A stretch of 64,000 nt of DNA from Escherichia coli (GCF_024223415.1 NZ_CP100500.1); one strand, 5' to 3'. Counted from the first letter of the stretch, positions 7,233 through 44,331 are shown. Translations and numbers: made by a program. The notes: generated by a model not told the origin, from the letters alone.

Positions 7233-8297
7233 ATGAAAAACGCCACATGCTTAACTGACGATCAACGCTGGCAATCTGTCTTAGCCCGCGACCCGAATGC
7301 CGACGGCGAATTCGTTTTCGCCGTGCGCACCACAGGCATCTTTTGCCGTCCGTCTTGCCGCGCCAGACATGCTTTGCGGGAAAACGTCTCCTTCTACGCA
7401 AATGCCAGCGAGGCACTCGCCGCCGGATTTCGCCCCTGCAAACGCTGCCAACCTGATAAAGCCAATGCCCAGCAACATCGGTTGGATAAAATCACCCACG
7501 CGTGTCGACTGCTGGAACAGGAAACGCCTGTAACGCTGGAAGCCTTAGCCGACCAGGTGGCGATGAGTCCGTTCCATCTGCATCGGTTGTTTAAAGCGAC
7601 TACCGGAATGACGCCTAAAGCCTGGCAACAGGCCTGGCGCGCTCGCCGTTTGCGCGAATCGCTGGCGAAAGGGGAGAGCGTGAAGACGTCTATTCTTAAT
7701 GCCGGATTCCCCGACAGCAGCAGTTACTACCGCAAAGCCGATGAAACGCTGGGCATGACGGCTAAACAATTCCGTCACGGTGGCGAAAATCTGGCGGTGC
7801 GTTACGCGCTGGCTGATTGTGAGCTGGGTCGTTGCCTGGTGGCAGAAAGCGAGCGGGGGATTTGCGCGATATTGCTGGGCGATGATGACGCGACACTAAT
7901 CAGCGAGTTGCAGCAGATGTTTCCCGCTGCCGACAACGCGCCTGCCGATCTGACGTTTCAGCAACATGTGCGTGAAGTGATCGCCAGCCTCAATCAACGC
8001 GATACGCCGCTGACGTTACCGCTGGATATTCGCGGCACTGCTTTTCAGCAACAAGTCTGGCAGGCACTGCGCACGATACCTTGCGGTGAAACCGTCAGTT
8101 ATCAGCAACTGGCTAACGCCATCGGCAAACCGAAAGCGGTACGGGCCGTTGCCAGTGCCTGTGCCGCCAACAAGCTGGCTATCGTAATTCCCTGTCATCG
8201 AGTGGTCCGTGGTGATGGCACACTTTCCGGTTACCGCTGGGGCGTGTCGCGTAAAGCGCAACTGCTGCGCCGCGAAGCTGAAAATGAGGAGAGGTAA
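7233..8297 (+). CDS. ada: Bifunctional Ada regulator / O6-methylguanine-DNA methyltransferase
   Basis: The N-terminal Zn Cys cluster (FCRPSCRARHA...PCKRCQP), an AraC HTH and the C-terminal PCHRV active site are present. An Ada-box-like AATTAAAGCGCAAG lies upstream at about 7154. Confidence 0.95.
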   Translation: MKNATCLTDDQRWQSVLARDPNADGEFVFAVRTTGIFCRPSCRARHALRENVSFYANASEALAAGFRPCKRCQPDKANAQQHRLDKITHACRLLEQETPVTLEALADQVAMSPFHLHRLFKATTGMTPKAWQQAWRARRLRESLAKGESVKTSILNAGFPDSSSYYRKADETLGMTAKQFRHGGENLAVRYALADCELGRCLVAESERGICAILLGDDDATLISELQQMFPAADNAPADLTFQQHVREVIASLNQRDTPLTLPLDIRGTAFQQQVWQALRTIPCGETVSYQQLANAIGKPKAVRAVASACAANKLAIVIPCHRVVRGDGTLSGYRWGVSRKAQLLRREAENEER

Positions 8298-8947
8298 TGT
8301 TGGATCTGTTTGCCGATGCTGAACCGTGGCAAGAGCCACTGGCGGCTGGTGCGGTGATTTTACGGCGTTTTGCTTTTAACGCTGCAGAGCAACTAATCCG
8401 CGATATTAATGACGTTGCCAGCCAGTCGCCGTTTCGCCAGATGGTCACCCCCGGGGGATATACCATGTCGGTGGCGATGACCAACTGTGGGCATCTGGGC
8501 TGGACGACCCATCGGCAAGGTTATCTCTATTCGCCCATTGATCCGCAAACAAATAAACCGTGGCCCGCCATGCCGCAGAGTTTTCATAATTTATGTCAAC
8601 GTGCGGCTACGGCGGCGGGCTATCCAGATTTCCAGCCAGATGTTTGTCTTATCAACCGCTACGCTCCTGGCGCGAAACTGTCGCTGCATCAGGATAAAGA
8701 CGAACCGGATCTGCGCGCGCCAATTGTTTCTGTTTCTCTGGGCTTACCCGCGATTTTTCAATTTGGTGGCCTGAAACGTAATGATCCGCTCAAACGTTTG
8801 TTGTTGGAACATGGCGATGTGGTGGTATGGGGCGGTGAATCGCGGCTGTTTTATCACGGTATTCAACCGTTGAAAGCGGGGTTTCATCCACTCACCACCG
8901 ACTGCCGCTACAACCTGACATTCCGTCAGGCAGGTAAAAAAGAATAA
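8297..8947 (+). CDS. alkB: Fe(II)/2-oxoglutarate DNA dioxygenase AlkB
   Basis: This is a 216-aa ORF whose start overlaps the ada stop (ATG/TAA overlap). It carries the HQDKDE and RYNLTFR motifs. Confidence 0.95.
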   Translation: MLDLFADAEPWQEPLAAGAVILRRFAFNAAEQLIRDINDVASQSPFRQMVTPGGYTMSVAMTNCGHLGWTTHRQGYLYSPIDPQTNKPWPAMPQSFHNLCQRAATAAGYPDFQPDVCLINRYAPGAKLSLHQDKDEPDLRAPIVSVSLGLPAIFQFGGLKRNDPLKRLLLEHGDVVVWGGESRLFYHGIQPLKAGFHPLTTDCRYNLTFRQAGKKE

Positions 8948-32816: not shown

Positions 32817-33152
32817 TTATCGGGCCAGCGGCTGAACGGATACGCCGGAACCCGCAAAGGCGGCGCATTTTTTCGCATCGGTGTCGACGCTGTCAGGCCA
32901 GTTAACGGCGGCAATATTGAATATCCCCGTTTTGTAACACTGTGCTGATTTCTGCTTTGACGTGTCCACGGGGTGCGAAGTCAGATAAACAGCTTTGCCA
33001 GATTCCTGACCATCCCACGCCTTAAACTCGCCATTGTCTGCCAGCATCAGCGGGGTAAATTCCTGAATAACGCCAGCATCAGCGGCAAAATGTACCAGCG
33101 TCGTGGATACCTGCTGGCTGCCTGCAAATAACTCAATATATGGAGCGTCCAT
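32817..33152 (-). CDS. Head decoration protein, lambda gpD family
   Basis: TPLMLADNGEFKAWDG and YKTGIFNIAAVNWP...KKCAAFAGSGVSV align with lambda gpD TPLMLDTSSRKLVAWDG and YKSGTFRYEDVLWP...KKRTAFAGTAISI. Confidence 0.85.
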   Translation of the reverse strand: MDAPYIELFAGSQQVSTTLVHFAADAGVIQEFTPLMLADNGEFKAWDGQESGKAVYLTSHPVDTSKQKSAQCYKTGIFNIAAVNWPDSVDTDAKKCAAFAGSGVSVQPLAR

Positions 33153-33163
33153 AGAATCCCCCG

Positions 33164-34219
33164 TTAAGCAATTTTGACGGTAACAAATTTGCGAATATCT
33201 GCCGGTACCGGCTGCGGTGCGCTGTGCGTCTGCACGTACTCAATCGCCGGATCGCCGTCCTCAATCCAGTTTTTCGGGTAGTACATGTTTTGCGTTGCGC
33301 CCGTTCTTACCGCTTCCTGATCCATAATCGCACCATATGCCACAAGCCCTTTATTGTTGGTGTTACCCAGGACAAGCAAATCAGGCTCAAGGAAATATTT
33401 TTCGGTGCCGTCGCTGTCAGTGTATTTGCCGGAATAGACGATAAGGGCCAGATCACCAAGATAGCCTTTAAAGCTCACCACTTCGCCCAGGTTTTTACAG
33501 GCCAGCTCGGCGGCGGATTCTGAGCCACGGTAAAGATCGTACAGTTCACGGAATTTTTTAAAGCTGCGTAATGTGCGCCATGCCTCACCGCCCATAATCA
33601 TGACGTTGGCGGGGCAACCTGCCTGATCAGCATAAAGCTCGATGTCATAGATTGGGTCGTGCATGTCTTTATCCTGCTGGGACCATTTTTTACCACTGGC
33701 CTGCTGTATGATGCAGTTTTCCGGTATTTTCCAGTCGATTTCATAGCGTTCTATGCCTTCGCCCTCAATGATGTTTTTTCCGGTCGTTACCGCATTCACC
33801 GCCAGCCATTCCACGCGCGCCTTAATGGCGTTTATCTGGCGGCGCATGTTGCCAGTAATCAGGCGCATACGGCGGTAAGTTGGATCGTTAAGCTGTGCCG
33901 GATCTTCTCCAGCCATGCGCATGATGGTCTTTGTTGGATCGATTTCGTGCTTTGGCTTCATGTAGCCTGGTTTAATCGTGCTGGTTTCGTACCCTTTATC
34001 GCGCTGGACCTGACTACCCACCATAGGAGAACAGAACGCTGACATCGTAACCTCTTCAATGTCCAGGGTGTCCAGCATGATGTTTTGGGTGTTGAAGGTC
34101 GCCACGTTCGGGAAAAACAGCGTGGTAAACAGCGGACTAAATTTAAATTCCGAAATATCCCCGCGATTCAGGTACGCGAAAAGCTGGTTAGTTGTAAGTG
34201 CCGTTGCTTTGCCTGTCAT
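33164..34219 (-). CDS. Major capsid protein, lambda gpE family
   Basis: FKFSPLFTTLFF, PGYMKPKHEIDP, DPTYRRMRLI, IVYSGKY and YPKNWIEDGDPAIEY align with lambda gpE FKFDPLFLRLFF, PGYVKPKHEVNP, DPAYRRRRII, VVYSGQY and YPKNWVTTGDPAREF. Confidence 0.9.
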   Translation of the reverse strand: MTGKATALTTNQLFAYLNRGDISEFKFSPLFTTLFFPNVATFNTQNIMLDTLDIEEVTMSAFCSPMVGSQVQRDKGYETSTIKPGYMKPKHEIDPTKTIMRMAGEDPAQLNDPTYRRMRLITGNMRRQINAIKARVEWLAVNAVTTGKNIIEGEGIERYEIDWKIPENCIIQQASGKKWSQQDKDMHDPIYDIELYADQAGCPANVMIMGGEAWRTLRSFKKFRELYDLYRGSESAAELACKNLGEVVSFKGYLGDLALIVYSGKYTDSDGTEKYFLEPDLLVLGNTNNKGLVAYGAIMDQEAVRTGATQNMYYPKNWIEDGDPAIEYVQTHSAPQPVPADIRKFVTVKIA

Positions 34220-34425
34220 TATTCACCTCCGTGAACCTGATTGATACCCAGCGCCGCACGTAAATAGGTACGCACCTGCCAGCCTGTTGACGGCTCAACC
34301 ATCGCCAGCGGATCAAGTCCTGCCGCAATGCCTGCTTTTACATTCTGCTGGTGGCGTTCCTTGAGCGCCTCCACGATGTCGGGGCTTATGTAGACCGTCA
34401 CCCCGCCTTTTTTCTCTTCTGCCAT
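34219..34425 (-). CDS. Hypothetical 68-aa protein, first gene of the capsid operon
   Basis: The RBS AGAGGAA precedes the ATG, and the stop overlaps the capsid gene start (ATGA coupling). Confidence 0.6.
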   Translation of the reverse strand: MAEEKKGGVTVYISPDIVEALKERHQQNVKAGIAAGLDPLAMVEPSTGWQVRTYLRAALGINQVHGGE

Positions 34426-34459
34426 AGTCAGAAATTCCTCTTTGACTTAAAAAATCATA

Positions 34460-34509
34460 ACTGGATGTTCATCCAGTCCTGATTATAATCATGATTGCAT
34501 TTTGCGCAA
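34460..34509 (-). promoter_or_regulatory. Candidate sigma70 promoter of the capsid operon with an overlapping palindromic operator
   Basis: The minus strand reads TTGCGC (34509-34504), a 16-nt spacer, then TATAAT (34487-34482). The inverted repeat ACTGGATG-aa-CATCCAGT (34477-34460) follows at about +1. Confidence 0.5.
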
Positions 34510-34592
34510 CAATATTGAGTTACGTTGCAAATTATGAAATGATTATCCCGATCATGTGTGCCAGTGCACCATAAAAAACCTCGTATACAAAA

Positions 34593-34630
34593 GCCCGATA
34601 AGCCCCCTGTGACCTTATCGGGCTTTTTTT
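34593..34630. terminator. Hairpin terminator upstream of the capsid promoter
   Basis: GCCCGATAAG-11 nt-CTTATCGGGC hairpin followed by TTTTTTT on the plus strand and by TTTTG on the minus strand. Confidence 0.6.
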
Positions 34631-34636
34631 AGGCGT

Positions 34637-34658
34637 AAAAAAGCCGGATTGCTCCGGC
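34637..34658 (-). terminator. Rho-independent terminator after the ProQ/FinO-like gene
   Basis: The minus strand reads GCCGGA-gcaa-TCCGGC followed by TTTTTT, 26 nt after the stop at 34684. Confidence 0.75.
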
Positions 34659-34683
34659 TTCGTCTCTTCATGTGGTCAGGGTT

Positions 34684-35278
34684 TTATGCTTTCCGTACGC
34701 CCGAGGAACTGGCATTTTTCAGAATAATATTATGCCCTGCTGGTGGCTTACCGTTATGCTTATTTTCTGCCTTCATGTTTCTGCGCTCCTGCTGTTTTTT
34801 CTTCATCTCATCCAGTCGCTTCCCCGCGTTCAACTGGTGCTCCTGTGTCACCTCCCCGCACGGATGGCCTTTCAGGTCGTAACGCACGCCACCAGCCATC
34901 AGGGAACGGTAATATCGCACTGAACTGACATAATACGCCAGCGTTGCGCGAAGCGCTCCCTGACCTAATGAAATACCTCTCGCAGTAATATCCTCCATCA
35001 GGTCATCAAATATGCCAACCTTAAGCGGTCTGGGCGATTCCTGGCTGAAAAGTTCAGGCCAGAGCGCGGCAAGGCGTTCAACGCGTCTGATATTTTTTTT
35101 CCGGCTCTTTTCTGATTTGCGTTTTGCTGCCGTCTTCTGTTGTGTTTTCTGCTCGCGGCTCTGCTTTTGCGCTGGTGTGGTTTTATCCGGCTGTTCAGCC
35201 TCCTGCGTCTTTTTCTGCGGTGTGCCGTATATGCCTTTTGGTTTTCGGTTAATGGTCAGCTTTGTCATGTTCTCCCCC
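34684..35278 (-). CDS. ProQ/FinO-domain RNA-binding protein with a lysine-rich N-terminal tail
   Basis: PRPLKVGIFDDL...LRATLAYYVSSVRYYRSL..GGVRYDLKGHPCGEVTQEH aligns with E. coli ProQ ARPLKIGIFQDL...LRSALRLYTSSWRYLYGV..GATRVDLDGNPCGELDEQH. The preferred start is MTKLTINRK at 35278, behind the RBS AGGGGGAG. The track ORF extends to 35364. Confidence 0.8.
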
Positions 35279-35347
35279 TTTGTGCTGTTCCACCAGCGGC
35301 ATCTGCTACCCCGTGTCGCTCCCGCTGGTGTCGTGTTTCCCCGCCTG

Positions 35348-35668
35348 TTAATAACCGTCATCATTTACGTTATCAGGGTAATCACGCCATATTTCATCAG
35401 TAAGCGACGGTAGCCCCATCTGTTGTATTGTCCTGTCTGCGGCCCTTCTGACTGCGTGAACATCATAACGGTTTTCAGGTATCGGGCGCTTTGCCTTCCT
35501 GATACATTCCCTTGCTCTCATTGCCGCAAGTTCTCTGTGCCTGTCTTCCTGAAGAGTAATCATCACATCCTGCCACCTTCTGGCAGCCCGTCGCCACAGT
35601 CCCCTGCTCTCGAGTTCTTCTGCTGTCGCGTCGCTTATTGTCCGGTTCTTCGGTGTGCTGTTGTTCAT
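35348..35668 (-). CDS. PerC-family (PerC/Pch-like) transcriptional regulator
   Basis: This is a 106-aa ORF. The N-terminal AEELESRGLWRRAARRW motif resembles the PerC signature. The call is made from memory of the family only. Confidence 0.55.
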   Translation of the reverse strand: MNNSTPKNRTISDATAEELESRGLWRRAARRWQDVMITLQEDRHRELAAMRARECIRKAKRPIPENRYDVHAVRRAADRTIQQMGLPSLTDEIWRDYPDNVNDDGY

Positions 35669-35685
35669 GTTGCTCCCCGCCTGAT

Positions 35686-36096
35686 TCAGAAGGGTATATC
35701 ATCTCCGTAGGGGTCATCGCCTCCCGCTGGTGGCTCATTCCCCTGTGTGCCTGTGGTTTTGCGTCTGTTCCCGCCATGACGTGCCGCACGCGCACTGATT
35801 ACGCTGTCTGCGATAACCTGCCAGCCCTGCCGCGTTTCCCCGTTCTGTCCGGTCCACTGGCTCACCTGCATGTTACCCGCCACGCTCAGGAGTTCACCTT
35901 TGCGGTGCTTTGCCAGTGCTTCGGCCTGTCTGCCAAACGCCAGCACAGATAACCACATCGTCGCCGTTCCGTCATCTGCCTGGCTGCACGGAAGGGGGAC
36001 CGCCATACTCGCCATCGCCATTTGTGTCCCCTTGCTGGTGGTCTTTAACTGCGGGTCAGCCACCAGCCGCCCGTAAGCCGCTATCTGTGCTGTCAT
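35686..36096 (-). CDS. ssb: Single-stranded DNA-binding protein
   Basis: It has an OB-fold N-terminus (GRLVADPQLKTTSKG...WLSVLAFGRQAE), a Gly/Pro-rich linker and the canonical acidic tip DDIPF. Confidence 0.85.
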   Translation of the reverse strand: MTAQIAAYGRLVADPQLKTTSKGTQMAMASMAVPLPCSQADDGTATMWLSVLAFGRQAEALAKHRKGELLSVAGNMQVSQWTGQNGETRQGWQVIADSVISARAARHGGNRRKTTGTQGNEPPAGGDDPYGDDIPF

Positions 36097-36344
36097 GCTG
36101 TATGCTCTCCGGTTTTAACGTTGATGGTTGTCACCTGTTCCGCTCCGGCAATCTCCCGTTCTGTCAGCGTGGCAAAATTTGCCGCTACCGTTGTCATGAA
36201 TGCGCTTATCAGTTCGGGATGTGCTTTCGCGTATCCTTCTCCCGCGTGGCGGTCTATCGTTCTGATTGCCACCTTTAAGGCGTGCTCTGTCATGTCTAAC
36301 GCTTTATATTTTGGCGCTGTCTTATCTCTGGTTTTTCTGTTCAT
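36093..36344 (-). CDS. Hypothetical protein (83 aa from MNRKTRDK)
   Basis: The track ORF is 36093..36374. Its first 10 codons are translated iteron repeats, so the start at 36344 is preferred. It overlaps the ssb start. Confidence 0.55.
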   Translation of the reverse strand: MNRKTRDKTAPKYKALDMTEHALKVAIRTIDRHAGEGYAKAHPELISAFMTTVAANFATLTEREIAGAEQVTTINVKTGEHTA

Positions 36345-36555
36345 TCCCCACCACTCCCCACTTTTGCTCCCCACTTTTTAAATTCCCCACTTGCTCCCCA
36401 CCTCGTTTTTTGAGTGAATCTAATGCTTTGTTTTTCATTGCGTTTTTTACTCCCCACTTTTTTGGATGTATACAGGTGGGAAAGTGGGGAATTATGTTTC
36501 AATTTTGTTAAATTCCCCACTCTCCCCACTTTTACTACCCACTTTTTACAGTGGG
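36345..36555. repeat. Iteron-type replication origin: about 13 copies of YCCCCAC(T) flanking an AT-rich spacer
   Basis: Direct copies are tccccac, ctccccact (x4), ttccccac (x2), tctccccact and tacccact. Inverted copies are gtggga, gtgggga and gtgggta. The AT-rich core is at 36411-36448. The region lies immediately 3' of the helicase gene. Confidence 0.7.
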
Positions 36556-37961
36556 TAAACATCATCCCCATCGACACAAATCACGCCGTCTTTTTCCAGC
36601 TTGGACAGCCAGCGCCGGAAGTGCTTCATCTCATACCCCAGCTTTTTCATATCGTCGCGGAGAAGGGCGATAGTGCATGGCTCTTTGTGTGCCGTCCGCG
36701 TTCTGATGCACTGCCATAGCGCGGTATGGTTTTCCGTCTTGTTGCCTGCCTCCTCGATGCGCTCCAGTTCAACGGGAGAGCGCGGCTTATCAACCACCAC
36801 CAGCGACGTGATTAACTCCCCGTCAGCGTCGGTAAAAAGCTCCACCACGCGTAAATCGTAGGCGGCCTCTTTCAGTTCCTCCGCGTCCTTCATTTTGGTG
36901 CAGGATATAACCAGGGCTTTACTGTCTGCACCTTCTCGGCGAATACGGTATTCAGCGTCCAGAGATGCACGAAATGCACTGGAACCACGCGCCCCCTTTG
37001 TTTCATCCTTGCCGGAATGGTGGACCACCAGCACCGTGGCCCCTGTGCGTCGTTTCAGGTCGTCACATCCACGGATAAACGCCCCCATATCCCGCGCGTC
37101 ATTTTCATCATTACCGCCAAAGCAACGCGCCAGCGTATCCAGAATAATCATGCGTACCGGTTTACCCGTTTCCCGTTCAACCTGGCGGGAAGCGATAACC
37201 ATTTCATCAACATCAAGCGGGGCTGCCGGAAAAATCGGGCGGTTTACCAGGTACAGATTTTTCACCCGTTCATCATTAACGATTTCCCATGCCTTGATAC
37301 GACGGGGGACACCAATGCCACCTTCACCGACAACATACATCACCGAACCATGCGCCACCCTGCGGCCTCCCCAGTGGCGCCCCGTGGCAACATGACACGC
37401 CCAGGAACACGCAAGGAATGATTTATAGGAACCGCTCGCACCGTATGTGCTGCACAATGAATTAGCCGGAATCACGCCCTTAACGACATAATCAAGCTGT
37501 GTGTCGTATCCTGCAGATCCAATGCTCATGGGTAGCGTGGTTTTTCGCTGGCTGTATTGCTCATCAGTAAGTATTTCCCCGCGCTCTGCCTGTTCGCGGA
37601 TCCGTTGCAGGTAGTCGCGCCATTCCTCCCGCTTCTGGCTGTGCATTCCCTCGGGGTAATAACTCGCATCCCGTATACCTGCCGCCGCCAGTTTTTGCCC
37701 GATGGCATTAATATTTGATGGCTTGATGTGGCCTGCCTTGTACAGCCGGACACAATAGCGACCATCGTCGATAATTTTCAGGTCTGCCAGTTCGTCAAGC
37801 TGACTGTCTCCCAGCCATACTGGCGGGACGTTATCGCCAGCAAGTCGCCCGTCCTGTTCCTGCCATTGTTTTGCGTGCGCCCAGGCATCACTACCTGCAA
37901 AAATAATGACTTCGGTCATTTTGTTGTGTGGCTGTTTTTTTAAGTTCGGTGCCAGTTTCAT
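36546..37961 (-). CDS. Replication initiator helicase (RecA-fold, RepA/DnaB-like AAA_25 type) with a C-terminal winged-helix domain
   Basis: This is a 471-aa ORF with a Walker A-like GASGSYKS, Walker B MIILDTLARCFGG and the motif VLVVHHSGKD. The start is coupled to the upstream gene (ATGA). Confidence 0.8.
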   Translation of the reverse strand: MKLAPNLKKQPHNKMTEVIIFAGSDAWAHAKQWQEQDGRLAGDNVPPVWLGDSQLDELADLKIIDDGRYCVRLYKAGHIKPSNINAIGQKLAAAGIRDASYYPEGMHSQKREEWRDYLQRIREQAERGEILTDEQYSQRKTTLPMSIGSAGYDTQLDYVVKGVIPANSLCSTYGASGSYKSFLACSWACHVATGRHWGGRRVAHGSVMYVVGEGGIGVPRRIKAWEIVNDERVKNLYLVNRPIFPAAPLDVDEMVIASRQVERETGKPVRMIILDTLARCFGGNDENDARDMGAFIRGCDDLKRRTGATVLVVHHSGKDETKGARGSSAFRASLDAEYRIRREGADSKALVISCTKMKDAEELKEAAYDLRVVELFTDADGELITSLVVVDKPRSPVELERIEEAGNKTENHTALWQCIRTRTAHKEPCTIALLRDDMKKLGYEMKHFRRWLSKLEKDGVICVDGDDVYPL

Positions 37962-38257
37962 TTTTTATCCCTGAATCCGTTAATCATGGTTTTCATCTTC
38001 TGAATATTGGCGCGTGCTTTCTCCCTGCTGGTTGGTTTACTGCGGGGCGCTGCCTGTACCAGAGAAAAATCACGCCGGAACTGATAAACAGGCATCACGC
38101 AGTCATATTCGTAGCCATCACGGCGGTAAGTGATGCGCCGTTCTGCCACGCCTTTAATCGTTACCGTACCGCCGTAGTTATCACGGAAAATATCGCCGGG
38201 ACGGATTTCAGGCCGAGCGGGGCCGCTGGCAGTAAAGCCAGAATTTTTCTTTTTCAT
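37958..38257 (-). CDS. Hypothetical 99-aa protein (possibly DUF4222-like)
   Basis: The ORF is coupled to the helicase gene, and small proteins of this type commonly precede satellite primase/helicase genes. The family assignment is only a recollection. Confidence 0.55.
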   Translation of the reverse strand: MKKKNSGFTASGPARPEIRPGDIFRDNYGGTVTIKGVAERRITYRRDGYEYDCVMPVYQFRRDFSLVQAAPRSKPTSREKARANIQKMKTMINGFRDKK

Positions 38258-38261
38258 GGTT

Positions 38262-38462
38262 TTATTTTCCTGTCAGTGATTCCGGCTTTATTCCGGCGCG
38301 AATACAGGCTTCAGAAAAAAAAGCCAGAGAACCAATAACCTCATTATTTCTAAGGCGGCATTGCGATTTCACTTTCCCTTTATCCAGGAATATCAAAACG
38401 CGCCCCGTATAATCAGATGGCACATTAAGCACTACAGGTAAGTGCGCTTCATGATTATTCAT
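38262..38462 (-). CDS. Hypothetical 66-aa protein
   Basis: The start MNNHEAHLPV at 38462 lies behind the RBS CAGGAGGTGG and overlaps the upstream stop (ATGAATAA). The track ORF extends to 38531. Confidence 0.6.
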   Translation of the reverse strand: MNNHEAHLPVVLNVPSDYTGRVLIFLDKGKVKSQCRLRNNEVIGSLAFFSEACIRAGIKPESLTGK

Positions 38463-38898
38463 GGCTAACCACCTCCTGGAATTTTCTTCTGTAACGCGCC
38501 TCTGCCACATATTCAGCATAGTCCGACGCAATATTGAGAATATCGCTACCCGTTCCTGAATGTTCGGCGGTTTCCAGTAAAAAACATGCAGCTTTTACCA
38601 TGTCAGCAACACATAACAGCGCAATATCTGTATCTTCCGGTGTGCCATCAAATTCCTGTTTCAGGGCATTAAAACGATCATCACGCATAACCCCATATTC
38701 ACAATCAGCAATCAGGATGGCTTTGGCCTCATTCAGTGCCATATCAGCGGTAAGCTGTGCGTAGGCCAGCAAATGCGGGATTATTGCCCCTGTATATTCC
38801 GGCTCTCTGATAATGTGGTCGGATGTGTTGATTAAATAGTTTGTGCGAAAAATGCACCTGTAACCATCAGTTAACAACGGATATACAGGGGGGACCAT
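38455..38898 (-). CDS. Hypothetical protein (about 147 aa if started at MVPPVY; the true start is uncertain)
   Basis: The C-terminal ~130 aa have protein-like composition (..ALNEAKAILIADCEYGVMRDDRFNALKQEFDGTPEDTDIALLCVADMVKAACFLLETAEH..) and the stop is coupled to the next gene. No strong RBS precedes 38898. Confidence 0.5.
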   Translation of the reverse strand: MVPPVYPLLTDGYRCIFRTNYLINTSDHIIREPEYTGAIIPHLLAYAQLTADMALNEAKAILIADCEYGVMRDDRFNALKQEFDGTPEDTDIALLCVADMVKAACFLLETAEHSGTGSDILNIASDYAEYVAEARYRRKFQEVVSHE

Positions 38899-39681
38899 GA
38901 ATGATAAGGGGGTGCCGTTTGATGTGCTCCTGCAAAAGCTGAATGCTGCACGCGCCGCAAGGGAACGTGAGCGCATGAGTAATAACCCTGTCCCTCCTGA
39001 ATTACCTCGCCCTGAACATTTTCCGCTTGAGGATTTCATCAGGGGACGAATCCGAACAAAACGATAACCGCCGCCGTGATATGAGGCATCACGACGCAAT
39101 GCATTACAGGTGAGCACCATGAACAAATCCATATTATCCCCCACAGTTCTGGACGTAAACACAAAGCAGCGACAGATATTATTACGCGCCGTCATTAAAG
39201 CCAGACACGAGAAATTAAACCAAATCTTAAAATAAGATACGCCGCTACCGCTGTAAGTCTTCATCAGAAACAGAAAACGCCAGAGCAGATGAGCACGGAG
39301 GTAACTCTTTATGAAAATAAACGAATCAGGGGAAATTACCGAAGCCAGCGTGGTACGCCAGCGGAGGCGGGAACGACGGGTACGGCCCCCCGCGCCATCC
39401 GATAATTTCCCGCTTGAGCGCTTCATCAGTGAACGGCCCCGCATACGCTGGAACGGCACAACCCCATACCCCGAGGAGAGACAGACAAAAAACAAACAGC
39501 GATGATGAAATCTGGAGGCCAATACCATCACGCAGCCATCAGGAGATTGCTGACGCGCTTCCTGTTCGCTGGTGGCCTCGATGGTAATCACGCGCGGTTG
39601 TGCAGTGCTCAGGGCGATAAAACGCCACACAAAGGCCGTTTGTGTGTGCGCAAGGCGTGGGGTATGCTGTGTTCCAGCCAT
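38455..39681 (-). CDS. Icd-like (host cell-division inhibitor-like) N-terminus continuing without a stop into the downstream gene. This may not be a single real protein.
   Basis: A strong RBS AGGAG lies 7 nt before the ATG at 39681. The sequence MAGTQHTPRLAHTQTAFVWRFIALSTAQPRVITIEATSEQEARQQ resembles Icd-like proteins of P4-type elements. The following ~260 codons are R/S/C-rich and junk-like, yet stop-free. Confidence 0.35.
   Translation of the reverse strand: MAGTQHTPRLAHTQTAFVWRFIALSTAQPRVITIEATSEQEARQQSPDGCVMVLASRFHHRCLFFVCLSSGYGVVPFQRMRGRSLMKRSSGKLSDGAGGRTRRSRLRWRTTLASVISPDSFIFIKSYLRAHLLWRFLFLMKTYSGSGVSYFKIWFNFSCLALMTARNNICRCFVFTSRTVGDNMDLFMVLTCNALRRDASYHGGGYRFVRIRPLMKSSSGKCSGRGNSGGTGLLLMRSRSLAARAAFSFCRSTSNGTPLSFMVPPVYPLLTDGYRCIFRTNYLINTSDHIIREPEYTGAIIPHLLAYAQLTADMALNEAKAILIADCEYGVMRDDRFNALKQEFDGTPEDTDIALLCVADMVKAACFLLETAEHSGTGSDILNIASDYAEYVAEARYRRKFQEVVSHE
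38897..39067 (+). CDS. Candidate small ORF (56 aa), paralogous to 39311..39505
   Basis: A G-rich RBS (GGGGGG) precedes the ATG. It shares ..FPLE.FI..R.RIR with the second ORF. It is antisense to the long minus-strand frame. Confidence 0.3.
   Translation: MNDKGVPFDVLLQKLNAARAARERERMSNNPVPPELPRPEHFPLEDFIRGRIRTKR
39311..39505 (+). CDS. Candidate small ORF (64 aa), paralogous to 38897..39067
   Basis: The RBS GGAGG lies 8 nt before the ATG. It shares the NFPLERFISERPRIR block with the other ORF. Confidence 0.3.
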   Translation: MKINESGEITEASVVRQRRRERRVRPPAPSDNFPLERFISERPRIRWNGTTPYPEERQTKNKQR

Positions 39682-39808
39682 AATCGTTACTCCTGTTAAC
39701 GGTTTGGTTAGACGCCCTGCATGTGTGCCACCACTGCGGGGCGTTGTTTTTGTGGTGTCATTGGTATACATTGTCACCTTAATGGCATTATCACTACAGA
39801 GGTTTATC

Positions 39809-39985
39809 ATGTCAACCAATGACAACAAAAAAGAAAGATTTTCCGTACAACTACGCCTAGACGCAGATTTGTTCGAGCGTTTAAGTATTGCCATGAAAGA
39901 AGATGGCGACGATAACCGATCTGGATGGATCAAAAGGCTTTTACGACGCGAATTAGATAAACGCGGCATTGAGTCAAAAAGCTGA
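39809..39985 (+). CDS. Ribbon-helix-helix (Arc/MetJ/CopG-like) DNA-binding protein and candidate island repressor. It is the only convincing plus-strand gene in the island.
   Basis: MSTNDNKKERFSVQLRLDADLFERLSIAMKEDGDDNRSGWIKRLLRRELDKRG has the beta-strand/helix/helix pattern typical of RHH proteins. An AGAGG RBS precedes it, and a terminator follows at 40079-40107. Confidence 0.6.
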   Translation: MSTNDNKKERFSVQLRLDADLFERLSIAMKEDGDDNRSGWIKRLLRRELDKRGIESKS

Positions 39986-40078
39986 CAGCCAACCAGCAAG
40001 CCAGCACACTGATCACATTGCCCACCAGCCGCAAATGTGGCATTGTTGGTGATGCTTTTGTTTTCCCTTGTTCCCACT

Positions 40079-40107
40079 GGCGACCCTTTTGCGGTCGCCT
40101 TTGTTTT
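40079..40107 (+). terminator. Plus-strand rho-independent terminator downstream of the RHH gene
   Basis: GGCGACC-cttttgc-GGTCGCC hairpin followed by TTTGTTTT. Confidence 0.65.
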
Positions 40108-40203
40108 GCCTGTTATCCGGCAATTGTGGCGCTTCGCCACACGGTTTATATAACCCCACTGCTCAGATTCATTTTTTGCGCAGTAGGTTAATTGTTCGCA
40201 AGG

Positions 40204-40230
40204 GCGGCTCCTTATCGGGGCCGCTTTTTT
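40204..40230 (+). terminator. Second plus-strand terminator, possibly the 3' end of a small antisense RNA
   Basis: GCGGCTCC-ttatc-GGGGCCGC hairpin followed by TTTTTT. It is not functional in the minus orientation, where no U-run follows. Confidence 0.55.
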
Positions 40231-40256
40231 CGTGTTTGTCATATCTGTGATACCCG

Positions 40257-40463
40257 TTAAGCAGCCGTTCCGCGTGCTTCCTGTTCGCGTTCTTTCTGCC
40301 AGGCCAACACATCATCCTCATACCATCCGCGACGGCGTAAACCAACGCGAAAACCCTGCGGAAATTCTCCGGCGTTGATCATGCTTTGCAGCGTGCTGTC
40401 TGCCTTGATGTGGATAATTTTTTTTACTTCCTGGCGAAAGATAATTTTTCTGATTGCTTCCAT
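40257..40463 (-). CDS. alpA: AlpA-family regulator/excisionase (MerR-type wHTH)
   Basis: This is a 68-aa ORF. The sequence ...STLQSMINAGEFPQGFRVGLRRRGWYEDDVLAWQ is typical of the AlpA/prophage CP4-57 regulatory family. Confidence 0.8.
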   Translation of the reverse strand: MEAIRKIIFRQEVKKIIHIKADSTLQSMINAGEFPQGFRVGLRRRGWYEDDVLAWQKEREQEARGTAA

Positions 40464-40481
40464 CGTGATTTACCTTGTGAA

Positions 40482-40498
40482 TCCGGTGTATTCCGGTG
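40482..40498. repeat. Two TCCGGTG motifs 10 bp apart just upstream of alpA
   Basis: The sequence is aTCCGGTGtatTCCGGTGac. The same heptamer is phased at 10 bp three times at 42386-42412, next to the att core. Confidence 0.6.
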
Positions 40499-40596
40499 AC
40501 AAATACGGTAAATCATCGGATATGGGTAAAAACAGTTCCCACCGTTTTTAAACGGTATACACCGTTTTTTATATTGATGATTTGAAATGGAATTAT

Positions 40597-40619
40597 AAAA
40601 AAAGCGGCATTTCTGCCGC
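40597..40619 (-). terminator. Rho-independent terminator after the int-orf83 unit
   Basis: The minus strand reads GCGGCA-gaaa-TGCCGC followed by TTTTTTT. Confidence 0.75.
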
Positions 40620-40630
40620 TTCCAGGATTG

Positions 40631-40882
40631 TTACCGCCATTTTTTGGGCCTGCCTCCGATCTTCATAGATGCCGGACGTACGACCTTATCAATACTTACC
40701 GCCAGATTTCTGGAAGCGCCACGGGATACCAGAAAATCTACTACCTGTTTTTTTGATGGGGCCGTCGTCCTGTCCTCCGGATCGTAGGTTGACCAAAATT
40801 CATGCTGAACCATCAGGGCCAGTTGCAGCCCGTCGCAATTGCATCTGATATTTTTTTGCATCTTAACGGTTTCATGTTTCAC
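40631..40882 (-). CDS. Hypothetical 83-aa protein downstream of int
   Basis: The ORF ends in a basic C-terminus (GGRPKKWR). I do not recognise the family. Confidence 0.5.
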   Translation of the reverse strand: MKHETVKMQKNIRCNCDGLQLALMVQHEFWSTYDPEDRTTAPSKKQVVDFLVSRGASRNLAVSIDKVVRPASMKIGGRPKKWR

Positions 40883-40959
40883 GGCCTTGTCGTTAAATTT
40901 GATGCAATTATACGACGGTTTTACATGGTTTTCGTAGTTTTTACTGGTTTTCTGTACAG

Positions 40960-42219
40960 CTACACGGCTCGGATACCCCTTTTACCACTGGCGAGGGTTA
41001 CGCCCGTCGCCGCAGCCTCGACAAATTCGCCCCACCAGCGCATCAGCACGATGCGTTTTTCTATGTAGTTGCTCCGGTTGTATGCCCGTCTAACTTCGTT
41101 GGTGTCGACGTGGGCAAGTGCCGCCTCTATTACGTCCGGCTCGAATCCTTCCTCGTTCGCTGCTGTGCTGAATATGGCGCGTAATCCATGAGACACCAGC
41201 ACGCCAGCGAATCCCATACGCCGCAATGCTGCGTTAGCTGTCTGGCTGTTCATCGGCTGCTGTGGGTCTTTCAGACTTGGGAAAACGTAATTGCGGTGGT
41301 GGCTGATTGGTTTCATGGCCTCCAGCACCGCCATAGCCTGACCGGAAAGCGGGATAACGTGATCCCTGCGCATCTTCATGCGTCCGGCAGGTATCGTCCA
41401 TTGCTTCGCGTCCAGGTTGATTTCATCCCACCGCGTTGATGACGCTTCGGCGGGACGGGTTACGGTCAGTAACTGCCATTCAATCAGTAATCTGGTCTGC
41501 CGTTCTGTTGCCGATACTGATAAAGCCTGCATAAGCTCGGGCAGCTGTTCGGGGCGGATTGTTGGCATATGTTTTTTTACAGGTGAGGGAAACGCCTTAC
41601 GCACATTCATAGCCGGATTGGCATCAATCAGCCCACTGTTGGCGGCGTAATCCATTACCTCATTAACGCGCTGTAAAACCCGCTTGAGTGTTTCCAGGTT
41701 GCCGCGCTCCTTGATGGGGGTAAGCACTTCAACGAACCTTCGGGCGGTGAGGGTATCTATTGGCGTGTTGCCGATGAACGGGAATACATATTTATCCAGC
41801 GAACGCCAGATGTCTTTAATCGTGTTGGGGGCCAGATTCTGGCTGATTTTCACCTGGTACCATGCCGCCGCCACATTTTCGAACGTGTTCCCTTGTCTTC
41901 GGGCCTCTGTCTCTCTTTTTTGCCTCTCGTGGTCCTGCGGGTCAGTTCCGGCACTGATTAACGTCCTGTACTCGCTACGGCGTTTTCTGGCATCAGCCAG
42001 GGAAACATCTTCAAGCGATCCAAAACTCAGCAATATTCTTTTTTTGTCCGATGGTCGGTAGTAGGAAAATCTCCAGAGTTTTGATCCAGACGGTTTGACC
42101 AGGAGAAAAAGCCCTCCGCCGTCCTGCAGGGTGTACTCCTTTTGCGCTGGTCTGGCTGCTTTGATCTGCACTGTGGTTAATGGGTGTGTTTTTCTCGCCA
42201 TATGTCTATGATTCCACAC
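40960..42219 (-). CDS. int: Tyrosine integrase, P4/CP4-57 (DUF4102 N-terminal arm-binding) type
   Basis: The N-terminus reads LTTVQIKAARPAQKEYTLQDGGGLFLLVKPSGSKLWRFSY. The catalytic region contains HGLRAIFST..ALAHV and RAYNRSNY. An alternative start MARKTHP lies at 42201. The gene is adjacent to the tRNA. Confidence 0.9.
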   Translation of the reverse strand: MWNHRHMARKTHPLTTVQIKAARPAQKEYTLQDGGGLFLLVKPSGSKLWRFSYYRPSDKKRILLSFGSLEDVSLADARKRRSEYRTLISAGTDPQDHERQKRETEARRQGNTFENVAAAWYQVKISQNLAPNTIKDIWRSLDKYVFPFIGNTPIDTLTARRFVEVLTPIKERGNLETLKRVLQRVNEVMDYAANSGLIDANPAMNVRKAFPSPVKKHMPTIRPEQLPELMQALSVSATERQTRLLIEWQLLTVTRPAEASSTRWDEINLDAKQWTIPAGRMKMRRDHVIPLSGQAMAVLEAMKPISHHRNYVFPSLKDPQQPMNSQTANAALRRMGFAGVLVSHGLRAIFSTAANEEGFEPDVIEAALAHVDTNEVRRAYNRSNYIEKRIVLMRWWGEFVEAAATGVTLASGKRGIRAV

Positions 42220-42235
42220 GAAAAAACAGGGTTTT

Positions 42236-42285
42236 AGTTATACGGCTTTAGTTATACGTCAGCCCGTATAACTAAACGTATAACT
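42236..42285. repeat. Four CGTATAACT motifs (two inverted, two direct), candidate integrase arm-type sites
   Basis: AGTTATACG at 42236 and 42250; CGTATAACT at 42265 and 42277. They lie directly upstream of int. Confidence 0.6.
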
Positions 42286-42385
42286 AAAAAATCCGGCTGA
42301 TAGCTTATAAATCCGGTGATGTTCGGTGACTAAAAAACATAAAAAAACCCGCCAATCAAGTGATTAGCGGGTTATCCCTGTCTTA

Positions 42386-42412
42386 TCCGGTGCTTTCCGG
42401 TGATATCCGGTG
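42386..42412. repeat. Three TCCGGTG motifs at exact 10-bp phasing abutting the tRNA 3' end
   Basis: The sequence is taTCCGGTGcttTCCGGTGataTCCGGTGgg. Confidence 0.65.
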
Positions 42413-42419
42413 GGCGATT

Positions 42420-42496
42420 TGGTCGGCACGAGAGGATTTGAACCTCCGACCCCCGACACCCCATGACGGTGCGCTACCAGGCTGCGCTACGTGCCG
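42420..42496 (-). tRNA. proL: tRNA-Pro (anticodon GGG)
   Basis: The minus strand reads CGGCACGTAGCGCAGCCTGGTAGCGCACCGTCATGGGGTGTCGGGGGTCGGAGGTTCAAATCCTCTCGTGCCGACCA. It is 77 nt with cloverleaf-compatible arms and an encoded CCA. Confidence 0.92.
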
Positions 42497-42570
42497 ACTC
42501 GTGGCTGTTAATACTACCGTTTTCCACACCGATTGCAAGTAAGATATTTCGCTAACTGATTTATAATTAA

Positions 42571-44331
42571 TCAGTTAGCGATAAAACGCTTCTCGTCTGT
42601 CAGTACTTGCAATAACAAACTTAACTGTGGTTTTTCATCTTTCACTCTTTCACCACGTAAGTTGTAAGTGCGGTATTTACCGTTATTGTTCAGCACCAGC
42701 GTCTTTTTCGGGGTGGTAATTGCCAGCGTATCGTTATCCGCTGCGGTAACCCAGTAATGACGGCGTTGAGGGTTGAACAAATCCTGACCTTGCGAATATT
42801 CGCTGGCAGGTGTGCTGACATGTAGCAGGCGTTGCATCAGCGTCGTCATCAGATCGGTATGATCAGTCAGCGCATTAATACGCTGCGCCGGCGTGCCTGG
42901 CCAGTGAATCACTAATGGCACCTGCAGGTGACCGTGGGACCAGTCAAAGGTTTCTTCCTCTTCGCTCAGTGGAATACCCCGACCGGCAGTGATAATCACC
43001 ACCGTATTGCCCAGTTTGCCAGAATCACGCAGTGCATTGAGCACGCGGTTGATCTGGTCATCGACATTGCCTGCCGCCCGGCTATATTTCCGTGCAAATG
43101 CCTGCTGATTGCTGTCGTCAATGTTGGTGCCATTGAAAGAGACCCACGAGAACCAGCGGTTATCTTCTTGTGCGTAGCGTCCCAGCCAGTTGATCCACTG
43201 CGTGGCGGTCTGCTCGTCGGATTGGGTGCGTACGCTCGGCATCGAGAAATCTGACAACAATGCCTGACGATAAAGCGGACTGGTAAAGCCATCTGACGAG
43301 AATAGGCCCAACTGATAGCCTTGCTGGTTGAGAGCGGTAATTAACGCCGCAGGCGTACGGGTCGACAGAATGCCGTCCATATAGCTCGGTGAGATGCCAT
43401 AGAACAGGCCAAAGATGCCGTTGTCTGTAGTGTTGCCGGAGCTCATATGGCGCGTGAACGAAATATTTTGCTCAGCAAAACCTGCCAGCGCAGGCATCTG
43501 CTTCTCGAAGCGTGAGTAGTTCAGGCCATCGACAGTAATCAACAAGACATTCTGCCCGGTGCCCATATCGCGATAGCGCAGTTCGCTTAACGGATACTGA
43601 ACGGAAACGGCGTCTGGATTACCTTGCTCAATAAGACGGCGTTGATACTCCTGTGCATCAAGCAGGCCATGCTTTTCAAGAAAACGTCGCGCCGTCATCG
43701 GGTACGAAAGCGGCAGGTTAGCGCGCTGCATGGTGATCGGGCGATAGAAGTTGGCATCGGCCCAGATATACACCACATGCGAGGCGATAAAGGCGATAAA
43801 TAAGAATGCGGCCAGCGGACGCGCGAAGCGCCGACGACGCGTCAGGCTGCGCAGCTTTTGCCAGCTCCACGTCGCAAACACCAGTTCAAGCAATAAAATA
43901 ACCGGCACGCTGATGAACATCAGCTGCCAGTCGCGCGCCATCTCATTTTCGTCTGGGTTGATAACCAGTTGCCAGACGATGGGATTAAGATGGAGATGGA
44001 AACGAGTAAAGACTTCGCTATCGATCAGTAATAGCGTCATTCCCGCCGTTGCCAGAATGACGGACAAAAACCTCATCAGCCTCTGGGAGCCGACGATAAA
44101 GGTCAGCGGGAAGAGGATCAGCAAGTAGGTGGCGAACACCAGGAAGCTGAAATGGCCGATAATGCTTACGTAGGAATAAATGCGACCAGCAAGCGTGGTC
44201 GGCCAGTCGGCGATAAACAGGTAACGGCTGCCAATGACGAGCGAAAGCAGAATATTGAACAGTGCAAACCAGTGCCCCCAACTGACCATCTGGGAGACTT
44301 TTTCACGGTAGCGCTGACGATGAGTTACCAT
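42571..44331 (-). CDS. yejM: Inner-membrane LPS/cardiolipin homeostasis protein YejM (PbgA/LapC)
   Basis: This is a 586-aa ORF with five N-terminal transmembrane segments and a sulfatase-like periplasmic domain. Confidence 0.92.
   Translation of the reverse strand: MVTHRQRYREKVSQMVSWGHWFALFNILLSLVIGSRYLFIADWPTTLAGRIYSYVSIIGHFSFLVFATYLLILFPLTFIVGSQRLMRFLSVILATAGMTLLLIDSEVFTRFHLHLNPIVWQLVINPDENEMARDWQLMFISVPVILLLELVFATWSWQKLRSLTRRRRFARPLAAFLFIAFIASHVVYIWADANFYRPITMQRANLPLSYPMTARRFLEKHGLLDAQEYQRRLIEQGNPDAVSVQYPLSELRYRDMGTGQNVLLITVDGLNYSRFEKQMPALAGFAEQNISFTRHMSSGNTTDNGIFGLFYGISPSYMDGILSTRTPAALITALNQQGYQLGLFSSDGFTSPLYRQALLSDFSMPSVRTQSDEQTATQWINWLGRYAQEDNRWFSWVSFNGTNIDDSNQQAFARKYSRAAGNVDDQINRVLNALRDSGKLGNTVVIITAGRGIPLSEEEETFDWSHGHLQVPLVIHWPGTPAQRINALTDHTDLMTTLMQRLLHVSTPASEYSQGQDLFNPQRRHYWVTAADNDTLAITTPKKTLVLNNNGKYRTYNLRGERVKDEKPQLSLLLQVLTDEKRFIAN

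Follow-up and report, generated by a model that had tools for sequence, protein, structure and literature searches.

A minus-strand open reading frame (ORF) of 595 codons lies in a satellite island that is inserted at tRNA-Pro beside yejM in Escherichia coli (GCF_024223415.1, NZ_CP100500.1). The stretch analyzed, which we call the window, is 64,000 nucleotides of this genome, and positions are counted from its first letter unless another locus is named. We consider it probable that the frame is an eta-type read-through ORF of a P4-like or capsid-forming phage-inducible chromosomal island (PICI) satellite, in which selection preserves the ability of the frame to be translated rather than the sequence of the encoded protein. 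This proposal is built on the anatomy of the region, the conserved openness of the frame in related islands, the constrained codon choice of the genes antisense to it, and a product that is not conserved.

A long open frame and its mosaic extension

The ORF forms part of a stop-free run of 618 codons (38458–40311, minus strand). When the sequence from 38200 to 40500 was shuffled 2000 times with preservation of dinucleotides, the longest run without a stop, whatever the frame, had a mean of 137 codons (standard deviation 29) and a maximum of 259. The original prediction that so long a frame is improbable by chance is therefore borne out. Between 38400 and 40300, the other two minus-strand frames contain 33 and 41 stops, and the plus-strand frames contain 19–29.

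As had been proposed, only two parts of the 595-aa translation resemble known proteins. Residues 188–246 are Icd-like (NF033153, E = 3.8e-14; phrog_6196, E = 1.2e-24), and residues 474–594 match phrog_2512 (E = 4.7e-49). The middle part (residues 247–448, 202 aa) falls into a single 90%-identity cluster, all from E. coli, among 5.8 billion proteins, and it is rich in Arg, Ser, and Cys (combined fraction of 0.31 versus 0.11 in the C-terminal part). The frame has no Pfam match at E ≤ 1, Phage_ASH (PF10554) included. A frameshift from sequencing or assembly, for which a check had been advised, is excluded because the identical ORF is found on 100 contigs and its middle module in nine complete genomes. 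The PGAP annotation of an identical complete genome gives the ORF the name 'host cell division inhibitor Icd-like protein'. The 595-residue 'Icd-like protein' of the databases is probably not an ordinary protein.

The Icd-like part has its own ribosome-binding site (RBS), the strong AGGAG noted in the original prediction, located 8 nt before ATG 39681. It scores 52.5 bits against NF033153 (cut-off 25), a family whose members normally are small proteins of about 60–70 aa. The Icd-like part lacks its stop and the ∼8 conserved residues at its end (IRQEVxHA), so that the ORF continues for 349 codons past the domain. At its far end, the stop of the long frame (38455–38457) is overlapped by the start of the next gene (ATG at 38462), consistent with the translational coupling that had been predicted.

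This extension results from a mosaic module. The C terminus and stop of the Icd-like gene, together with the first ∼37 codons of the next gene, were exchanged for DNA from the corresponding region of a different island type. Upstream of the Icd-like gene, the window has the ordinary make-up of L002/L024-type islands, which lack C4 (L numbers denote the loci compared), and homology to such islands ends at ∼39503–39520, within the Icd-like C terminus. The module then resembles the alpA-proximal part of the L005-type frame, in which small antisense ORFs come first and the block that immediately precedes IsrK comes next. The second junction (∼38800–38815) is inside the next gene, where the join to the phrog_2512-type gene sits in a ∼25-nt patch of similarity. 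The location of the junctions in similarity patches points to recombination between islands. The module is nearly invariant, and the two island types that host it differ in integrase. A blastn search with the middle module against phage and plasmid collections gave no match. The possibility that the module is a transposable element was rejected, as terminal repeats and a target duplication were not found at the junctions.

Because both junctions are in frame, two eta-type segments and a truncated gene read as one ORF of 595 codons. Translation from either ATG 40242 or ATG 39681 would reach 38455, since the module removed the Icd-like stop without breaking the frame. The original suggestion that an Icd-like gene lost its stop is therefore correct for the 349 downstream codons, where the junction replaced the last ∼8 codons and the stop, but the openness upstream is not explained in this way.

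Conserved openness and codon choice

The same geometry occurs in 15 of the 18 E. coli/Shigella islands examined (window included), in six other enterobacterial genera, and in P4. Typical long frames have 290–660 codons with 0–1 stops; the other frames have 9–46. In the intact islands examined first, one minus frame is nearly stop-free from the upstream gene (alpA/helix–turn–helix [HTH] or antA) to the Icd-like stop, and the other frames in the E. coli islands among them contain 13–46 stops. Measured from the first ATG, the long frames encode 662 aa (L004), 634 aa (L012), 596 aa (L005), 477 aa (L010), 420 aa (L003), 392 aa (L002), 343 aa (L008), and 294 aa (L009). L024, which is the window's island without the module (99.5% identity in the integrase/HTH region), has ∼378 open codons. 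Six further E. coli islands include four with 432, 386, 443, and 333 open codons, a 'tiled' island with one stop directly before the Icd-like gene, and an exception (L033) that is discussed below. A scan of one genome per species returned seven related loci. In six of these (Pantoea, E. ruysiae, Hafnia, Cedecea, Klebsiella, and Enterobacter), the Icd-like part ends a frame of 289–349 aa, and the other frames contain 9–25 stops; the Shigella locus is short.

The long frame and the Icd-like gene share one stop in L002, L003, L005, L012, L024, L028, L029, L031, and L032. The starts are also similarly placed. E. coli long frames begin no more than about 50 nt from the stop of the upstream gene or overlap its end, and relatives have overlaps of 4–14 nt or spacers of 8–50 nt, several with a strong Shine–Dalgarno (SD) sequence or an ATGA-type overlap. 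In the window, the TAA of the alpA-like gene (40257–40259) is followed by a 14-nt spacer and then by ATG 40242. Because the sequences of different islands are largely unrelated, it is openness and not sequence that is conserved. A search for stops among relatives had been suggested as a check on the frame. Relatives do stop right after the Icd-like part, and the extension is specific to the window; upstream of the Icd-like part, however, openness is strongly conserved.

A decayed remnant in E. coli O157:H7 that lacks both alpA and Icd has seven stops in the frame, and its plus-strand ORFs are intact. This remnant (L006/L007, from O157:H7 and other strains; 2572–3282) is flanked by insertion sequence fragments and retains three intact small plus-strand ORFs of the F-[AP]-L-E-x-F family, the central one of which matches many sampled O157:H7 and other enterohemorrhagic E. 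coli genomes and has ∼76% identity to L005. It is located ∼1.4 kb from the small RNA Esr41 (L006 4683–4756). The long-frame region of the islands, as opposed to this remnant, finds matches in roughly 1,600 of the 5,426 complete E. coli genomes.

The plus-strand small genes opposite the frame look real. SD-like sequences precede the ORFs that begin at 38897, 39119, 39311, and 39809, and, as stated originally, these ORFs share third codon positions with the long frame (all at coordinate mod 3 = 1). This third-facing-third phase is present in all islands checked and for both families of plus-strand genes. The ribbon–helix–helix (RHH)-like ORF of 58 aa is entirely antisense to the long frame. Its protein has ten homologues (52–93 aa, 44%–58% identity, conservative substitutions) among 1.84 billion representative proteins. 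One of these is a solitary gene just upstream of a Fic-domain gene in a P2-like prophage (L025/L026 2501–3289), a position which hints that the family might be an antitoxin-like regulator.

The 56-, 38-, and 64-aa ORFs belong to an E. coli/Shigella family of 39 clusters. Its members combine a helix at the N terminus with a linker rich in Pro and a shared F-[AP]-L-[ED]-x-F motif. Used by itself in a protein search, the 64-aa ORF yielded no homologue; it took the family profile to recover its relatives. The AlphaFold2 model of the 56-aa protein has two helices (mean pLDDT 77). The motif Ala is retained by use of all four Ala codons, and these changes alter the residue encoded by the minus frame. 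Even across the degenerate member of the family (39119–39310), the minus frame is open. A frameshifted variant of the 56-aa ORF (P0054) was considered as evidence for a broken frame and was set aside as a probable artefact of assembly quality, since its contig (L015) carries many fragmented genes.

An intercistronic hairpin accompanies these ORFs. Six of its ten pairs have compensatory changes, G-U pairs occur on the plus strand, and the loop is often GTGAGG. Copies are located at L005 3019–3045, 3262–3288, and 3547–3573, and others are present in L003, L006, L008, L009, L010, and L012. This element could be a site of attenuation, processing, or protein binding. The island that carries it also encodes a ProQ/FinO protein.

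Openness of the long frame is maintained by codon choice in these antisense genes. When the plus-strand ORFs were rewritten with synonymous codons and antisense stops in the phase of the long frame were counted, 3.1 stops were expected in the window, 6.0 in L005, and 6.3 in L012. None was observed in any of the three (P = 0.011, P = 2e-4, and P < 2e-4, respectively). The test is conservative because the 23 control genes of the window have more stops than expected (442 observed versus 385 expected; 3.8% per codon; longest run 251 codons). Within the plus-strand ORFs of the window, the long-frame phase has 0 stops versus 14 and 8 in the other two minus phases. An RHH homologue outside the satellite context has four antisense stops in 59 codons in the same phase. 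About 200 spacer codons outside the plus-strand ORFs are also free of stops in the long frame.

Nothing indicates that the amino acid sequence of the minus frame is under selection. It matches no family, it is hypervariable, and its ratio of nonsynonymous to synonymous substitution rates (dN/dS) is higher than that of the plus strand. The values are 0.06–0.58 for the plus frame and 0.16–0.80 for the long frame, with the plus frame lower in all six comparisons of this small sample.

Relation to P4 eta and alternative explanations

The island is a capsid-forming PICI/P4-like satellite. It has a tRNA-adjacent integrase, alpA, a replication module with a helicase, and capsid genes, all in one orientation. 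The genes are ordered as integrase, AlpA-like HTH gene, long frame, small gene, DUF4222, and RepA-type helicase, and further genes encode SSB, PerC, ProQ/FinO, major capsid, and head-decoration proteins.

According to the portion of PMC10111431 that cites Forti et al. 1999 (J Bacteriol 181:5225), the eta gene of P4 is coupled to the alpA homologue, and a constitutive promoter is located within eta whose transcripts are terminated via CI/seqA. The same portion describes Kil as a truncated product and states that, when eta is translated on transcripts from the upstream late promoter, termination is prevented and the downstream genes are transcribed. We find that the P4 long frame (8168–8812, minus strand, 214 codons) has an ATGA overlap with the ORF88/alpA stop; that it contains a promoter-like site (8728–8699) and the a1b1, IsrK, and C4 RNAs; and that its last part is Kil, a protein that can be aligned with the Icd-like family.

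Several of these features are shared by the window. The long ORF starts at the end of the alpA/vis homologue, a Kil/Icd-like gene with its own start is nested in the same frame, and a translationally coupled replication operon follows. The AlpA-like gene is the counterpart of P4 ORF88/Vis, and sequence alignment identifies the Icd-like gene as the counterpart of Kil. A promoter-like site is predicted inside the long frame and upstream of the Icd-like gene, flanked by a 24-nt inverted repeat (39748–39771/39809–39832), and we propose it as the analogue of the internal constitutive promoter PLE of P4. Islands L005, L008, and L012 reproduce the P4 arrangement, with IsrK/seqA and C4/CI inside frames of 343–634 aa. 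Between alpA and the internal promoter region, L005 and L012 carry four small plus-strand genes and L008 carries one.

If the frame operates as eta does in P4, then ribosomes that finish alpA on transcripts from the alpA promoter would reinitiate and translate the whole frame. This translation would shield the nascent RNA from Rho and from terminator structures, and transcription would thereby reach the replication genes. Selection would therefore act on translatability and not on the product. In the repressed state, only the internal promoter or promoters and the opposing plus-strand unit would be active. A more speculative possibility is that the RHH protein and opposing plus-strand transcription silence the internal promoter and the Icd-like gene in the resting state. 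Selection against stops for a reason other than protein function had been among the three explanations offered originally, and it is the best supported of them, given the openness conserved across islands and the codon choice. The structured leader RNA that had been named as an example is not favored; the closest precedent is the translation of P4 eta.

A number of observations weigh against this proposal. The anti-termination role is transferred from P4 by analogy, and the CI/C4 RNA, the IsrK RNA, and the Phage_ASH match of P4 eta are all absent from the window frame. Unlike eta, this frame does not end with the nested gene but reads through the module into a truncated gene. ATG 40242 is preceded only by a weak SD sequence. 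In L008 and L009, the long frame is out of frame with the Icd-like gene. L033 has 32 stops in the frame, which coincide with a 227-aa abortive infection (Abi) gene on the plus strand. This is the only intact island examined whose long frame is broken, and it indicates that openness is not obligatory. Common ancestry makes the sampled islands less than fully independent. The pairwise differences in dN/dS between strands are modest, and the numbers of substitutions at plus-strand codon positions 1 and 2 (14/11, 8/9, 3/3, 9/11, and 11/10) do not discriminate between strands. The Abi gene of L033 (E. coli C 237-04, 3200–3883, plus strand), annotated as 'abortive infection protein', lies between YlcI and the HTH gene, and its slot may be a cargo or defense hotspot that trades off against the read-through frame.

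An accidental origin is unlikely. In this scenario, the Icd-like stop was lost by recombination, luck or compositional bias would account for the remaining openness, which would have no function, and the 595-aa call would be purely an annotation artefact. The downstream extension is indeed limited to a rare and nearly invariant module, the frame of relatives ends at the Icd-like stop, and the composition of the plus-strand proteins already lowers the expected antisense stops to about 1.4%–2% per codon. However, the 618 open codons far exceed the longest runs in shuffled sequence and in real genes, the spacer codons are stop-free too, and the upstream 187 codons follow a pattern that is conserved across genera. 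Both module junctions are in frame, and the source region of the module is open in the source island type. Accident remains partly true for the window-specific extension. Shadow ORFs, a known artefact of gene calling, likewise are long ORFs that lie opposite real genes and are picked up by annotation pipelines. Unlike these, the window frame has an openness far above that of control genes, spans intergenic spacers and terminators, and is conserved across islands of unrelated sequence. A generic explanation of this kind was rejected on the basis of the control genes and the out-of-context RHH homologue. The calls phrog_4106, 'ash family', and 'Icd-like' pseudogene do appear to be products of shadow ORFs.

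It is quite unlikely that the frame encodes a genuine multi-domain protein whose residues matter, such as a domain-swapping 'Bro network' regulator fused to an Icd-like part, with the plus-strand ORFs as shadows. Such frames are named 'Icd-like', 'ash family', or Phage_ASH by PGAP and Pfam, the frame is intact in many strains, and PMC10111431 counts eta among the Bro-network genes and treats such frames as domain-swapping proteins. Nevertheless, no families are evident beyond the Icd-like part and the C-terminal gene, and the middle part has the biased composition described above. Sequence is swapped wholesale between islands and openness persists, dN/dS favors the plus strand in every comparison, and the Ala of the F-[AP]-L-E-x-F motif is preserved by synonymous codons that alter the minus-frame residue. 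Moreover, the plus-strand RHH gene has stand-alone homologues elsewhere; the terminators, RBSs, and G-U-paired hairpins of the plus strand are conserved; and Phage_ASH coincides with RNA genes. True dual coding, in which an antisense overlapping pair or array yields functional proteins from both strands, is very unlikely. Its appeal is the constant phase, seen in every island with two unrelated plus-gene families, and a codon choice that is constrained on both strands. The minus-frame sequence is without sign of conservation, however, and selection for openness would also favor this phase, which has the lowest intrinsic stop rate. The overlapping antisense genes of the original prediction are thus genuine in a limited sense only: real small genes on the plus strand face a frame that is probably translated, but there is no indication that minus-frame residues are selected.

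An eta-type read-through frame in the window would differ from P4 eta in other respects. At 595 codons, it is three times longer than eta (197–214 codons), and it runs opposite four small ORFs and two terminators of the plus strand, an arrangement that goes unmentioned in the papers retrieved by full-text searches. Literature searches on Icd-like or YlcI/YnfO genes in satellites gave gene lists only and no description of such an overlap. The genes of the 'Bro zone' of Gram-negative PICIs and HE-PICIs (PMC10111431) occupy the same position from alpA to replication, are equally mosaic, and likewise have immunity RNAs inside 'genes'. They are regarded there as domain-swapping proteins, whereas our data suggest that much of their length is retained only to keep a frame open opposite antisense genes.

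The immI operon of P1 and P7 (c4 RNA, icd, and ant; Rfam C4 RF01695 and c4-a1b1 RF03163) also is headed by a small gene of the Icd family. Relatives of the window carry C4 and its targets as P1 and P7 do, but the window itself is without a C4 RNA. An antA/antB gene is absent from the window and present in some relatives. Transcription of the P1 immI operon depends on translation of a leader gene. To our knowledge, no long upstream in-frame ORF has been described in P1.

There is perhaps an even chance that the arrangement is general. The 1–2 kb between alpA and the replication genes of enterobacterial P4-like and PICI satellites would then be used on both strands. One would carry small regulatory proteins (the RHH protein and the F-x-L-E-x-F family), structured hairpins between the cistrons, and a terminator; the other would hold a coupled frame whose sequence can vary freely but which is selected for openness and constrains synonymous codons in the antisense genes. 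Long 'Icd-like', 'ash family', Phage_ASH, and phrog_4106 entries would be largely by-products of this general and previously undescribed extension of the eta principle. No description of this broader pattern appeared in the papers that full-text searches retrieved. If confirmed, a kilobase-scale frame is kept open for the act of translation, across real antisense genes, with a measurable footprint in codon choice. Such a frame could be part of a switch of PICI/P4-like satellites from the repressed state to alpA-driven expression of replication genes. It also explains a systematic annotation problem in the E. coli loci examined, namely 300–660-aa 'Icd-like proteins', 'ash family' pseudogenes, and small plus-strand genes that lack annotation.

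Other features of the region

Coordinates of the features are collected in Table 1. DNA conservation at the intrinsic terminator is 76%–85%.

Table 1. Features in and around the long frame of the window
Feature	Coordinates	Strand	Remarks
Next operon gene	38262..38462	−	ATG overlaps the long-frame stop by 8 nt; DUF4222 and RepA-type helicase follow
Long (eta-like) frame	38455..40242	−	595 codons from ATG 40242
Truncated phrog_2512-type gene	38458..38805	−	3′ 113 codons; first ∼37 codons replaced by module
IsrK-upstream block	38783..38853	−	Homologous to the stretch upstream of/overlapping the 5′ end of IsrK/c4-a1b1 in C4-type islands
Mosaic module, ∼0.7 kb	38805..39510		In 9/5426 complete E. 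coli genomes; two island types
56-aa F-[AP]-L-E-x-F family ORF	38897..39067	+	Antisense to long frame; gene call in some records (P0051)
Intercistronic hairpin	39071..39097	+	∼27 nt, then CATTGCTTTACAGGTG; precedes most small plus-strand ORFs in related islands
Truncated/pseudogenised paralogue of 67-aa family member	39119..39310	+	38-aa ORF, then two in-frame TAA within the motif region
64-aa F-[AP]-L-E-x-F family ORF	39311..39505	+	RBS GGAGGT; antisense to long frame
Nested Icd-like gene	39503..39681	−	NF033153, phrog_6196; alignment with P4 Kil and relatives
Promoter-like site (prediction)	39787..39815	−	Sigma-70 type, TTGACA-17-GATAAT; 11/12 consensus matches
58-aa RHH-like small gene (YlcI/YnfO-like)	39809..39985	+	Weak matches to NF041551 (E = 0.018) and RHH_1 (E = 0.12)
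Intrinsic terminator	40079..40099	+	Conserved; ends small-gene transcription unit; same hairpin at L005 4126–4146
Terminator-like hairpin and T-run	40200..40228	+	Long-frame ATG comes after the hairpin on the opposite strand
AlpA-like HTH gene	40257..40463	−	Pfam Phage_AlpA E = 0.0035; PHROG excisionase/regulator E = 5.5e-7; PGAP: HTH regulator

The reverse complement of the intrinsic terminator reads as 'KTKAT' near the N terminus of eta-like frames, and K-T-K-A-[AT] is found near long-frame starts in E. coli, Klebsiella, Hafnia, and Pantoea (window, L005, L018, L020, and L022). This apparent protein motif is the terminator on the other strand. A similar situation may hold for two database families. 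Phage_ASH matches P4 Eta (L016, 8330–8704) and L005 (2532–2897) over the stretch that encodes the IsrK, c4-a1b1, and C4/CI RNAs, and its conservation may reflect these RNA genes rather than a protein domain. The plus strand precisely opposite the Icd-like gene carries a 65-aa ORF (39502–39699) with a match to phrog_4106 (E = 2.8e-13), a family that may have been built from antisense calls on Icd-like genes.

The IsrK-upstream block occupies the position of the P4 internal-promoter region, and no IsrK or C4 RNA follows it in the window. An Rfam search of 33000–44000 at E ≤ 1 gave no match, and the sole match in the window was tRNA-Pro, which excludes a known C4/IsrK leader RNA. Beyond the block, the truncated phrog_2512-type gene, which has a full-length homologue at L009 1571–2020, holds a complete nested unit of 77 aa (phrog_24341) that starts at ATG 38688. 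Depending on the island, the gene after the Icd-like gene is one ORF of ∼150 aa (phrog_2512) or two overlapping ORFs of ∼77 aa (phrog_5146 and phrog_24341), a recurrent fusion or split that is seen when window 38458–38805 is compared with L002 2996–3461 and the L009 gene.

The alpA-like gene is preceded by nested inverted repeats (40484–40503/40545–40564 and 40528–40547/40550–40569), and a minus-strand terminator-like hairpin (40623–40600) ends the small gene that precedes the alpA-like gene. The region made up of 40484–40569 and 40600–40623 is likely the regulatory region of the alpA promoter, the counterpart of the P4 late promoter PLL.

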